A stretch of DNA of 64,000 bases. It comes from Escherichia coli (lineage in GTDB: Bacteria > Pseudomonadota > Gammaproteobacteria > Enterobacterales > Enterobacteriaceae). The notes beneath the pieces are model-generated. The model had not been told where the DNA came from, ran no database searches, and saw nothing but the letters and a program-made list of their open reading frames with translations. Shown here piece after piece: positions 14,041-48,000 of the stretch. Position 1 is the first letter of the stretch, and the number at the start of each line of letters is the position of its first letter. The stretch lies in NCBI RefSeq assembly GCF_003334815.1, contig NZ_QOWO01000009.1; one strand, written 5' to 3'. The translations under genes and the position numbers were made by a program.

Positions 14041-14077
14041 CGCCTGACCTTTTCAGGTGCTCAGTGGGGATTGAACA

Positions 14078-14701
14078 ATGCTCGTCTATTGGCTGGATAT
14101 AGTCGGCACAGCGGTATTTGCCATCTCCGGCGTTTTGTTAGCCGGAAAATTGCGTATGGACCCTTTTGGTGTTCTGGTACTGGGCGTGGTAACCGCAGTA
14201 GGCGGCGGGACAATTCGCGACATGGCGCTGGATCACGGCCCGGTATTTTGGGTGAAAGATCCCACCGATCTGGTCGTTGCAATGGTCACCAGCATGCTGA
14301 CCATCGTGCTGGTGCGCCAGCCAAGACGCTTACCAAAATGGATGTTGCCGGTGCTGGACGCCGTTGGTCTGGCGGTGTTTGTCGGCATTGGCGTGAATAA
14401 AGCCTTTAATGCGGAAGCCGGTCCGTTAATCGCGGTTTGTATGGGCGTCATTACTGGCGTTGGCGGCGGGATCATTCGTGATGTTCTGGCCCGCGAAATC
14501 CCCATGATTTTACGTACAGAAATCTACGCAACTGCCTGTATTATCGGCGGTATTGTCCACGCTACGGCTTATTACACATTTTCCGTACCACTGGAAACAG
14601 CCAGTATGATGGGCATGGTCGTGACGCTATTGATTCGGCTGGCGGCTATTCGTTGGCATCTTAAGCTACCGACGTTTGCGCTGGATGAGAATGGGCGTTG
14701 A
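14078..14701 (+). CDS. yadS: UPF0126 inner membrane protein YadS
   Basis: Track ORF 14078..14701, 207 aa, highly hydrophobic with glycine-rich repeats (TRIC-like membrane protein). Confidence 0.85.
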   Translation: MLVYWLDIVGTAVFAISGVLLAGKLRMDPFGVLVLGVVTAVGGGTIRDMALDHGPVFWVKDPTDLVVAMVTSMLTIVLVRQPRRLPKWMLPVLDAVGLAVFVGIGVNKAFNAEAGPLIAVCMGVITGVGGGIIRDVLAREIPMILRTEIYATACIIGGIVHATAYYTFSVPLETASMMGMVVTLLIRLAAIRWHLKLPTFALDENGR

Positions 14702-14710
14702 AGAGAGAAG

Positions 14711-14737
14711 ATGTGCCGGATAGTTTATCCGGCACAT
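14711..14737. terminator. 27-bp near-perfect palindrome between convergent yadS and erpA (putative bidirectional terminator)
   Basis: ATGTGCCGGATA-GTT-TATCCGGCACAT: 12-bp arms, 3-nt loop, placed 10 nt after yadS stop and 10 nt after erpA stop; no U-tract. Confidence 0.45.
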
Positions 14738-14747
14738 GAACAACAGA

Positions 14748-15092
14748 TTAGATACTAAAGGAAGAACCGCAACCGCAGGTGCTTTTCGCGTTCGGGTTGG
14801 TCACGATGAAACGAGAACCTTCCAGACCTTCGGTATAATCAACGGAACCGCCGACCAGATATTGCAGGCTCATCGGATCAACCACCAGGCCAACGCCCTG
14901 TTTTTCGATGGTCATATCGCCTTCGTTCACCTGATCATCAAAGGTGAAACCATACTGGAAGCCGCTGCAACCGCCACCGGTGATATACACGCGTAATTTC
15001 AGATTCGGGTTATCTTCGTCAGCGATCAGGCTTTTAACTTTGTTGGCTGCTGCGTCGGTAAACTCCAGCGGCAGTGCTACGTCATCACTCAT
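14748..15092 (-). CDS. erpA: iron-sulfur cluster insertion protein ErpA (A-type carrier)
   Basis: Track ORF 14748..15125 (-); trimmed to M12 [20 protein letters not shown]..., 114 aa, C-terminal CGCGSSF motif. Confidence 0.9.
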
Positions 15093-15173
15093 ATTTTGCT
15101 CCAAACGACATCGGCAATTGGGCAAATTCTAACCCAATAATAATCGCCATTATCTAATACCCTGGTATTTCGT

Positions 15174-16613
<1,440 letters not shown>

Positions 16614-16819
16614 TCATACAAATAAGATGACGGCATTTTACTCGCACGTTCCATGAAAATCCTTTGCAAAGCGTAATGTTTCAAATGCACAAAACTTTTA
16701 TACTCTAAGAAATCAGGATTGCACCAGTACAAGCAGCCTGATGTTTGACGAGTATTTAACTTGTTATGAATAACATAGAATAGCAGCCATTCACTTTTTC
16801 TACGAATCAGGAACCCTCC

Positions 16820-18109: not shown

Positions 18110-18240
<131 letters not shown>

Positions 18241-45391: not shown

Positions 45392-46621
45392 TTATCCCTG
45401 CGGCTGGTTACTCACCAGCCGCGACATCGTCTCCAGCGAATCCGTTCTTAAGATATAAAGTCGTTTTAGTAACAACGGATTATCCCCCGGTTTTACTTTG
45501 CCTTTCATGGTTGTCACCGCCAGGTGAAATCCGGCATCGTTTGCTGCCTTCACGGCGTTGTCATTAAATCCGCCAAACGGATACGAAAGATACCAGACAT
45601 GCGGATTAAATTGCGCCAGAGCGCGGCGTGAACGTGCAAAATCAAACAGAATATTGTGCTCACTACGGCTCAGTAATATGGGTCGGCGATAACCATCTAC
45701 CCGATGCAAAAAATGGGTATGTGACTGGAAATCAAATACATCGCGAATTTCGTTAAGCTCAGAAACGCTCATAAATTGCAGCGATTTTGGGTTCCACTTC
45801 TGCGGGTGACGTTTGATGCGTGAGGTAACAATAAACGCCGTCGCCTTCATGCCATATTGTTTCAACACAGGATACGCATAGCGGCTCACCGACTTGAGGC
45901 CATCATCAAAGGTAATCACCACCGCTCGCGCAGGGAGATTGATCTTATTCTTCACGTAGCCTTCCAGCTGCACCATGCTCAGTGTCGCGTATCCCCTGTC
46001 ACGCAGCCAGGCCATCTGGTTATTGAAAGCGCGTACCGATGTGGTCGTCGAAGTATGGCGAAAACGGGTGTTTTCTTCGTCGCGCAGAATATGGTGATAG
46101 GTTAGCACCGACAGGCCATTATCGGGTTGGGCATCCAGTGCGCTGATATAGGCCAGTCGATCGCCAATACGGATCTGATACCAGGTTTGATTTAACCTGT
46201 CTTTCAGTTTATGCAAAATCGGGTAGCGCAAATTGTCCGCCAGTACCCCAAATGGCGCACTTCCCGCACTCGGCGCGTTATAGACCGGCGTATCTTTCCA
46301 GGTAACTAAGTTCTGATTACTCAGCGGCTTGTTGAGGTCGCCCAAACCGTCTTCAACTTTTTGTCGCCCCTGAACCGGCTCGAGATGACCTTTATCGATA
46401 AAACCTTTGCCAAAGCCAAAATTAAATGCGTAATAACTTGCGGCAGTGGGCTCCACGGCAATGATTTGTCCGGCCCGAATATTCCCCACGGTCACCATCT
46501 TGTCACCAATTTGCGCCCAGACCGCAGCATTTTCGATGGTTTGCATATAACGGGCAGGTAACGCGGCACTGACACTTGCGGTAAACAGCATCAGCAGGAG
46601 AATAACAGCTTGTTTGTACAT
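45392..46621 (-). CDS. yadE: putative secreted polysaccharide deacetylase (NodB/CE4 domain)
   Basis: Track ORF 45392..46621 (-), 409 aa, signal peptide [19 protein letters not shown]; C-terminal domain has deacetylase-like TFDDG motif. Confidence 0.85.
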
Positions 46622-46684
46622 GAAAAAATAACCGAGGGTGAAACAACGCTTTTATTGTAGCAAAAGCGCCATCAGAATCGCGGG

Positions 46685-47125
46685 TTAATACTCATACAAA
46701 TTATGTTTGAGGACGAAAGGCGGATTTTTTTGTTGTTGGTGCCAAAGACTACTCACCTCCGGCGCACCCAGTTCGACAATACGCTCGCGAAACTCTGAAC
46801 TGGTCATGGTTTCACGGCAAGCCATCATCTGTTCAATTAACGGTAACGTGACACCAGAAATCACTTCGCAACGGGAGTGTTTGTGGCTTAATAATGAAGC
46901 CACGCGATACGGTGGCGCTCCGGCTATATCGGTTAAGAAGATGACACCCTCACCAGAGTCCGCTTCATGCAGAGCATCGCACATCATGCGGCTGAGCATA
47001 TTAGAGCTTAATCCGCGCCAGAAATTCACGGCCCGGCACTGAAGAAGTGCCCCATGTTTTTTCTCCAGCGCATCCAGTATCTCTTGCGCCCGGTCATCGT
47101 GACAGGTAATTACCCAACCTAACAT
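46685..47125 (-). CDS. yadI: orphan PTS EIIA-like protein (mannose/sorbose family)
   Basis: Track ORF 46685..47125 (-), 146 aa, MLGWVITCHDDRAQEILDALEKKHG...; no EIIB/C/D partner genes in the window. Confidence 0.85.
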   Translation of the reverse strand: MLGWVITCHDDRAQEILDALEKKHGALLQCRAVNFWRGLSSNMLSRMMCDALHEADSGEGVIFLTDIAGAPPYRVASLLSHKHSRCEVISGVTLPLIEQMMACRETMTSSEFRERIVELGAPEVSSLWHQQQKNPPFVLKHNLYEY

Positions 47126-47185
47126 CGCCTTCCTCCTTAGCCGAAAATCAGTCTACCCTGACCATTGTTGATAAAGGGTGATAGC

Positions 47186-47222
47186 CGTCAAAACTCCTCT
47201 CCCCCAAATCCAGAGGAGAGGA
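47186..47222 (-). terminator. yadGH operon terminator (putative)
   Basis: TCCTCTCC / GGAGAGGA 8-bp stem with 12-nt loop (47195-47222); minus-strand GUUUUGACGG follows; 8 nt after yadH stop. Confidence 0.4.
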
Positions 47223-47229
47223 AATAGCC

Positions 47230-48000
47230 TTAGCTACGCAAACCACGTCCACGTTGGATCAGCGACCAACAGATCAAATAAAACGCCACAATAAAGACCA
47301 CCAGTACGCCAAAGGTAGTGACCAGCGGAACATCATTGATACCGAGGAAGCCGTAGCGGAAACCACTGATCATATAAACGATTGGGTTCAGGTGCGACAG
47401 CCCTTGCCAGAACGGCGGCAACAAAGTCAGTGAGTAAAAGACCCCGCCCAAATACGTGAGTGGCGTTAACACAAAGGTTGGCACCAGGCTGATGTCATCG
47501 AACGTTTTGGCAAACACACCGTTCAGCAAACCCGCAAGGGAGAACAACACCGCCGTGAGCACCAGCGTTAAGGCAACGAATACCCACGAATGCACCTGAA
47601 ATGGCACAAAAAACAGTGAAATTGCCGTCACCAGAATGCCAACAAACAGACCACGCGCCACGCCACCGCCGACATATCCGGCAATAATGACGTGAGTCGG
47701 AACCGGCGCTACCAGCAGCTCTTCAATATTACGCTGGAACTTGGCACCAAAAAATGATGACGCAACGTTGGCGTAGGCATTGGTGATCACCGACATCATG
47801 ATCAGCCCCGGTACGATGAACTGCATATAGCTGAAGCCATGCATATCGCCAATACGCGAACCAATCAGGTTACCGAAGATAATAAAGTAAAGGGTCATGG
47901 TGATGACTGGCGGCACCAGCGTCTGCACCCAGATACGCATAAAGCGATGGATCTCTTTCGCCCAGATGCTTTTTAGCGCCACCCAGTAAAGATGCATCAT
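47230..48000 (-). CDS. yadH: ABC-2 type transporter permease
   Basis: Track ORF 47230..48000 (-), 256 aa, six predicted TM segments; start overlaps yadG stop by 4 nt. Confidence 0.9.
   Translation of the reverse strand: MMHLYWVALKSIWAKEIHRFMRIWVQTLVPPVITMTLYFIIFGNLIGSRIGDMHGFSYMQFIVPGLIMMSVITNAYANVASSFFGAKFQRNIEELLVAPVPTHVIIAGYVGGGVARGLFVGILVTAISLFFVPFQVHSWVFVALTLVLTAVLFSLAGLLNGVFAKTFDDISLVPTFVLTPLTYLGGVFYSLTLLPPFWQGLSHLNPIVYMISGFRYGFLGINDVPLVTTFGVLVVFIVAFYLICWSLIQRGRGLRS

Follow-up and report, generated by a model that had tools for sequence, protein, structure and literature searches.

Described 3' ends of convergent genes

Four described systems are close to the locus analysed here. Rho-dependent transcripts end just past stable stem-loops without U-tracts, with the rut element immediately downstream, and these stem-loops protect against PNPase and RNase II (Dar and Sorek 2018). 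The overlapping bidirectional terminators catalogued by SEnd-seq consist of a single hairpin in a convergent gap, flanked by the 3' ends of both strands, and the authors of the catalogue call the class Rho-independent (Ju, Li and Liu 2019; Wang et al. 2022). In classical bidirectional intrinsic terminators, a GC-rich stem stands between an A-tract and a T-tract.

The fourth system is the Y-type REP unit, an imperfect palindrome of ~35-40 nt with an apical stem and an internal mismatch, whose basal stem reads GCCGGAT(A/G) ... (T/C)ATCCGGC(A). REPs carry a GTAG head tetranucleotide beside the stem, which serves for recognition by RAYT transposases. They occur in many copies, outside genes and at gene 3' ends, and ~60% of them lie between convergent genes.

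We analysed the junction between the convergent genes yadS and erpA in a stretch of 64,000 nucleotides (64 kb) of an Escherichia coli genome, hereafter called the window. The palindrome in this junction belongs to known kinds, being a REP and a catalogued bidirectional terminator that behaves like a protective stem-loop of Rho-dependent transcripts. The element is already known: it is annotated as REP14 in strain MG1655, its 3' ends have been mapped, and it figures in a published terminator catalogue.

A perfect hairpin in the yadS-erpA gap

In E. coli, yadS (+ strand) and erpA (- strand) converge on a gap of 46 nt, which contains the palindrome ATGTGCCGGATA-GTT-TATCCGGCACAT. The arms are complementary at 12 of 12 positions and are separated by a 3-nt loop. 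The features of the junction are as follows.

14078-14701, + strand: yadS coding sequence, TRIC-family channel protein; its stop lies 9 nt before the stem
14748-15092, - strand: erpA coding sequence, iron-sulfur cluster insertion protein; its stop lies 10 nt before the stem on its own strand
14711-14737, no strand: REP14 palindrome (12+3+12), from the sequence, its folding, the match to MG1655 and the label of Harris et al. 2026

The yadS stop codon TGA occupies 14699-14701, and that of erpA is the reverse complement of 14748-14750. The same hairpin forms in both transcripts, with an RNA folding energy of -18.3 kcal/mol on either strand and folding z-scores of -6.4 and -7.7 relative to dinucleotide shuffles. 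The earlier note on this DNA, made from the letters alone, had described a 27-bp palindrome with perfect 12-bp arms and a 3-nt loop, common to the two convergent genes. That description holds, and the distance of 10 nt that it gave for each stop is right for erpA and one base too long for yadS.

Only one perfect hairpin with 12-bp arms and a loop of 3-8 nt is found in the 64 kb, at 14711-14737. The number expected by chance per 64-kb window is 0.023 analytically, and a mean of 0.05 was obtained in 40 first-order Markov simulations. This expectation of 0.02-0.05 per window, taken together with the location, the conservation and the mapped ends, rules out a chance palindrome. Of 5426 complete E. 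coli genomes, 5425 contain a match to the segment 14640-14810 (95-100% identity), which in every case falls under yadS and erpA. The exact palindrome is present as a single copy in the same proportion (5425/5426). BLAST reported two places per genome, which we read as the two strands of one site. A search for the palindrome elsewhere in the genome, which the earlier note had proposed, returned only the site itself, with no second exact copy in the 64-kb window or the 5426 E. coli genomes. MG1655 is identical over the stretch and carries the palindrome at 176965-176991 (window position = 191702 - MG1655 position, a conversion that was checked). A permissive Rfam scan of 14000-15500 yielded no curated RNA family over the hairpin, its sole match being a chance snoRNA hit inside erpA.

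Two annotated small ORFs lie nearby on the - strand. yadW (21 codons, 15085-15150) overlaps the start of erpA by 8 nt, and yadX (15 codons, 16607-16654) is found just upstream of clcA. They could serve erpA and clcA, respectively, as leader peptides.

Identity and origin of the element

The palindrome is REP14, which we read as a Y-type REP unit cut down to its basal stem, with the stem now perfectly paired over 12 bp. The earlier note had overlooked this identity, along with the listing of the site as a bidirectional terminator and the moderately U-rich tail on the erpA side. In pairwise comparisons, the basal arms GCCGGATA...ATCCGGCA proved identical to those of Y-type units, namely REP16 of MG1655, a Y unit of the window and the units of Salmonella and Citrobacter amalonaticus. 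The Y-type basal stem, GCCGGATA...TATCCGGCA, is thus intact in REP14, which is also extragenic and placed between convergent genes at gene 3' ends, in the 46-nt gap, and bears its curated MG1655 label in Harris et al. 2026.

Unlike a full Y-type unit, REP14 is only 27 nt long and perfectly paired, with no internal mismatch, and it misses 11-12 apical nt relative to every full unit compared. The GTAG head is absent beside the stem, the flanking sequence being GAAGATGT and, for the opposite strand, GTTCATGT. Each genome has one copy of the exact REP14 sequence; the arm motif is also found in REP11 and in the canonical REPs of the window. The RefSeq feature tables of MG1655 contain no REP at the site, nor any REP at all. 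This absence is uninformative, because the tables likewise leave out an obvious BIME, the one between fhuB and hemL.

Two canonical full-length REP pairs of the BIME-like kind are found in the window. The one between fhuB and hemL (18114-18198) consists of a Y unit and an inverted Z2-like unit, and the pair at 52906-53003 of a Y unit and an inverted Z1-like unit. The flank of the Y unit at 52.9 kb (GTTGTTCATGCCGGAT) resembles the erpA-side flank of REP14 (GTTGTTCATGTGCCGGAT).

In Salmonella and C. amalonaticus, a full-length REP unit occupies the aligned position. In the multiple alignment, the palindrome coincides with the basal part of the Y-type unit nearest erpA in S. enterica arizonae, S. 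enterica diarizonae and C. amalonaticus, and the flank CATGA(A/C)...CAGA is common to the palindrome and the aligned S. enterica and C. amalonaticus units. The palindrome appears to descend from a full-length REP unit at the same locus, independent gain being the alternative.

Mapped 3' ends and Rho sensitivity

Published 3'-end maps and bicyclomycin data place the following features around the hairpin.

14707-14708, - strand: dominant steady-state 3' end of the erpA mRNA (Term-seq, Adams et al. 2021)
14741, + strand: yadS-direction 3' end, 4 nt past the stem (MG1655 176961; SEnd-seq entry 10 in the reproduced list, stationary phase only)
14708-14741, no strand: 34-nt overlap region transcribed into both mRNAs (SEnd-seq entry 10 in the reproduced list, MG1655 176961-176994)
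14551 (approximate), - strand: peak of the Rho termination region for erpA-direction readthrough (MG1655 177151, +; supplementary file 2 of Adams et al. 2021)
14850 (approximate), + strand: peak of the Rho termination region for yadS-direction readthrough (MG1655 176852, -; Adams et al. 2021)

By Term-seq, the dominant primary erpA 3' end maps to MG1655 176994 in LB at OD 0.4, 176995 in LB at OD 2.0 and 176994 in M63 (Adams et al. 2021). Set against the MG1655 sequence, these ends fall 3-4 nt past the last base of the stem. The Term-seq lists of the same study hold no 3' end on the yadS strand. The latter end comes from the SEnd-seq list of bidirectional terminators of Ju et al. 2019, as reproduced by Harris et al. 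2026, where entry 10 spans 176961-176994. In that table, entry 10 has a 12/3/12 stem, AUGUGCCGGAUA, and a dG of -18.9; its 5' flank counts 0 A and its 3' flank 4 U. Also recorded are convergent transcription in a gap region, detection in stationary phase, an effect on clcA:erpA:yadS:btuF and the label REP14, given with an 18-nt overlap. The yadS/erpA locus goes unmentioned in the supplementary material of RepRanger and in that of Wang et al. According to its caption, supplementary file 1 of Adams et al. 2021 gives each 3' end with 40 bp of upstream and 10 bp of downstream sequence. Matched to MG1655, its 61-nt strings prove to consist of 50 nt before the end, the end nucleotide itself and 10 nt after it, a mismatch that affects how end positions are read.

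Bicyclomycin raises the signal downstream of the hairpin on both strands (Adams et al. 2021). At 177151 (+), antisense to yadS, upstream/downstream reads were 131/15 without the drug and 200/382 with it, giving a Rho score of 16.7 (p 1e-35); the downstream reads in the erpA direction thus rise ~25-fold (15 to 382). At 176852 (-), antisense to erpA, the corresponding reads were 86/20 and 62/70, with a Rho score of 4.85 (p 5e-8). The two Rho-dependent regions lie 110-160 nt beyond the hairpin, at positions that are approximate since the scores use 800-nt windows, a scale that does not resolve release at the hairpin itself.

The earlier note had proposed that the palindrome acts as an RNase-protective 3' stem for both mRNAs or as a site of factor-dependent termination. 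Both proposals fare well, the first with ends 3-4 nt (erpA) and 4 nt (yadS) past the stem, the second with bicyclomycin-sensitive regions downstream on each strand. The 3'-end mapping that it had suggested as a check exists in the published Term-seq and SEnd-seq data, which place the ends next to the stem and not far beyond it.

A proposed 3'-end module common to two transcripts

We propose, with a probability of about 0.75, that REP14 is a 3'-end module common to the convergent clcA-erpA and btuF-yadS transcripts, working as a pause site and exonuclease barrier backed by Rho. RNA polymerase that gets through the hairpin would travel no more than ~100-160 nt further, Rho being its chief stopping factor on antisense RNA that is no longer translated. 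The RNA would next be shortened by 3'-to-5' exonucleases as far as the hairpin, so that stable ends remain 3-4 nt past the stem on either strand. A pausing effect of the hairpin on polymerase is also possible, and the tail CUUCUCUCUU may add slight intrinsic termination on the erpA side; collisions and this weak intrinsic termination are possible secondary contributors. The hairpin, its mapped 3' ends, the bicyclomycin sensitivity downstream, the conserved pairing and the homology to REPs are established. That trimming and not release at the hairpin produces the mapped ends is an inference, and so is any apportioning of termination among Rho, colliding polymerases and intrinsic release.

The proposal follows the protective stem-loops of Dar and Sorek 2018, with which REP14 shares a stable stem-loop directly 5' of its ends (+3/+4 for erpA, +4 for yadS) and the lack of a proper U-tract. 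On the erpA side, the fit to this picture is good, with readthrough that depends on Rho and an excess of C over G just downstream. RNA past the hairpin in this direction has a C/G ratio of 4.25 over 40 nt, and the C-over-G values of the 80- and 120-nt windows reach the 98th-99th percentile of the 64-kb window. The responsible segment is:

14671-14710, - strand: tract of the erpA transcript just past the hairpin, rich in pyrimidines and C and poor in G (CUUCUCUCUUCAACGCCCAUUCUCAUCC...), a candidate rut and weak U-tract

The fit is weaker on the yadS side, where the first 80 nt show no C-over-G excess (C/G 0.73), the Rho score is smaller and stationary phase alone yields the end. REP14 also differs from the described stem-loops in that one hairpin serves two opposing transcripts, and the role of exonucleases would be carried over to it by analogy.

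Further counterpoints bear on the proposal. The bicyclomycin-raised downstream signal could come partly from independent antisense promoters and not from readthrough of the hairpin, a caveat that follows from the 800-nt scoring windows. In addition, a genome-wide survey found mRNAs that end in REPs to have no longer half-lives.

Possible polymerase collision

The class to which the SEnd-seq catalogue assigns the site suggests another reading, one that we consider doubtful although still a serious possibility. REP14 could be a Rho-independent bidirectional terminator driven by collision: the hairpin would pause polymerase on either side, a head-on collision would block readthrough, and a trailing polymerase would dislodge the complex, the RNA being released at the hairpin. 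The site resembles this class in being entry 10 of the reproduced list of overlapping bidirectional terminators between convergent genes, with one hairpin, the ends of both strands flanking it, an overlap of 34 nt and poor A and U flanks. The tabulated flanks, with their 0 A (5') and 4 U (3'), are unlike those of a classical intrinsic terminator. The erpA-side end has been confirmed independently by Term-seq, and the authors of the catalogue favour both collision and a pausing role for the hairpin.

Against this reading, the class is described as Rho-independent, whereas at the yadS/erpA locus bicyclomycin-sensitive regions, scoring 16.7 and 4.85 in 800-nt windows, follow the hairpin on both strands. 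The bicyclomycin data therefore favour a Rho contribution. Collision works best for highly expressed genes, and yadS is weak relative to erpA (baseMean 318 versus 1330). Head-on encounters should be rare because yadS is weakly expressed and stands behind a strong internal 3' end in btuF. Moreover, the reproduced list reports the overlap in stationary phase only.

The 3' end in btuF is a distinct feature of the neighbourhood. At the start of the gene, in the signal-peptide region (13257-13275, + strand), a GC hairpin is followed by the T-tract TCTTTTCTTG. A very strong Term-seq 3' end maps to this place (MG1655 178423/178421, 46,000-59,000 reads), classed as the primary end of mtn and as an internal one of btuF. 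The site is probably an attenuator of transcription towards btuF-yadS and one reason for the low expression of yadS.

Tails and possible intrinsic release

The two tails of the hairpin differ. The yadS-strand tail, GAACAACAGA, has no U-tract, as the earlier note had stated for both flanks. For the erpA-strand tail, CUUCUCUCUU, that statement is only partly right: the tail is moderately U-rich, with 6 U in 10 nt (5 in the best 8-nt window). The 7-8-nt U-rich tract that directly follows the stem in a classical intrinsic terminator is found on neither side. A lenient terminator scan called the hairpin on the minus strand only, i.e. in the erpA direction. With the 0.9/0.6 weighting of the TransTermHP-style tail formula, the erpA strand scores -2.8, a marginal pass at the TransTermHP cut-off of -2.5, and the yadS strand fails at -1.5.

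REP14 might on this basis be a weak, one-sided intrinsic terminator, in which the hairpin and CUUCUCUCUU would release polymerase without any factor in the erpA direction and the hairpin would only protect the RNA in the yadS direction. We regard this as unlikely, although the lenient scan and the tail score speak for it. So do the better tail of E. albertii on the erpA side (UUUUCUCUCU) and the true intrinsic terminators that most other genera have at this position. Intrinsic release is expected 7-9 nt after the stem, and the mapped end lies only 3-4 nt past it. The first tail position is a C, further Cs interrupt the tract, and downstream reads rise ~25-fold with bicyclomycin. Mixed or transitional cases of this kind have been described by Dar and Sorek.

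The junction in other Enterobacteriaceae

We fetched 80 orthologous yadS-erpA junctions from Enterobacteriaceae species. The convergent order is kept in all 80, and every gap contains a strong hairpin, the kinds of which differ. In an explicit scan, 47 of the 80 loci have a classical bidirectional intrinsic terminator (A-tract, GC stem, T-tract), about 25 a REP-type sequence with no U-tract or a one-sided one, and 4, from Escherichia, the short palindrome. REP14 shares with the classical terminators its position and presumed job; it differs from them in having neither A-tract nor T-tract, in ends that fall 3-4 nt past the stem and in the Rho sensitivity downstream.

Within Escherichia, the gap stays at 46-47 nt and the core stem is invariant (nine sequences compared). 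In E. albertii, three stem pairs are changed on both sides with pairing kept, and one further pair is mismatched. This compensatory pattern was equalled by 1 of 500 shuffles, and slid structures gave none. It is supportive rather than strong evidence that pairing has been kept, all three changes coming from one lineage. The replacement of the hairpin by unrelated ones in other genera is the stronger sign that structure, and not sequence, has been kept.

These comparisons also bear on a DNA-level role, whether as an operator for a dimeric regulator or as a target of REP-associated proteins (RAYT transposase, gyrase, IHF). The perfect dyad symmetry of the DNA is compatible with such a role, and part of the published work on REPs reports functions at the DNA level. 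Harris et al., however, found their model REP to have no part in organising the chromosome. The GTAG head that RAYT recognition needs is absent, E. albertii alters both half-sites with pairing kept, and the hairpins of other genera are unrelated. We find a DNA-level site highly improbable, and the protein-binding site that the earlier note had listed as an option is not supported, on the same comparative grounds. In the CRP consensus, the half-sites are 8 nt apart. A CRP-like operator (TGTG...CACA) was rejected on the 17-nt spacing of its half-sites here and on the compensatory changes of E. albertii.

Several genera show enlarged junctions. In five Buttiauxella loci (L037, L039, L044, L048 and L063), the yadS-erpA gap has grown to ~180 nt and contains a REP that has a T6 tract behind it when read towards erpA's downstream side; the REP is therefore used as an intrinsic terminator there. 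The same gap also holds a long structured repeat with CCCCAGGAGCATAG...TGACTGGGGTGAACG, presumably an ERIC/IRU element from its appearance. The gap reaches 580 nt in Superficieibacter electus and 1025 nt in Kosakonia sacchari, so something has been inserted between yadS and erpA in these two species.

Related REP stubs and distance to the stop codons

A sibling of REP14 in the window is REP11, located between hpt and can (49703-49725) in a convergent gap of 40 nt (49695-49734). It forms a perfect REP-arm hairpin, TGCCGGATG-CAACA-CATCCGGCA, 8 and 9 nt from the stops, and it is entry 6 of the bidirectional terminator list as reproduced. The Term-seq 3' end of can (MG1655 141974, window 49728) falls 3 nt past its stem. 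REP11 differs from REP14 by its 9-bp stem and 5-nt loop and by its detection in log as well as stationary phase. REP21 (phoE/frsA) shares ATGTGCCGGAT, and this sharing suggests that a class of short REP stubs exists.

The short distance to the stops raises the question of translation, which is reported to be lowered where a REP stands no more than 15 nt from a stop codon. By analogy, ribosomes terminating 9-10 nt before the hairpin would have to melt the base of the stem, and stalling and trans-translation would lower the output of ErpA and YadS. The distances of 9 and 10 nt, measured directly, are within the 15-nt range, and the 46-47-nt gap is constant across Escherichia. We nevertheless hold such a damping effect to be quite improbable: ErpA is an essential, well-expressed protein, and many orthologous loci have ordinary terminators equally near the stops, so that the spacing may only reflect compact genomes.

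A more speculative idea, to which we attach little credence, is that REP14, like REP11 and REP21, is a 'domesticated' REP stub. Such a decayed mobile element, having lost its apical stem, would have had its arms perfected, possibly by template-switch correction. It would then have been selected at 9-10 nt from two opposing stops for two jobs, fixing both mRNA 3' ends and making terminating ribosomes melt the stem base.

Meaning of the locus

As a discovery, the palindrome carries little weight, REP14 being annotated, its 3' ends mapped and the terminator catalogued. If the idea of domestication were true, the stub would couple translation termination to the protection of mRNA ends or to tmRNA tagging of ErpA and YadS. 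The locus is a compact test case, since the collision model, stated to be Rho-independent, and Rho termination followed by trimming predict different outcomes at yadS/erpA, and the public data reveal sensitivity to Rho on either side of a terminator catalogued as 'Rho-independent'. Across the Enterobacteriaceae, the junction alternates among classical bidirectional intrinsic terminators, full REPs and a REP stub, which makes it a clean example of terminator turnover.
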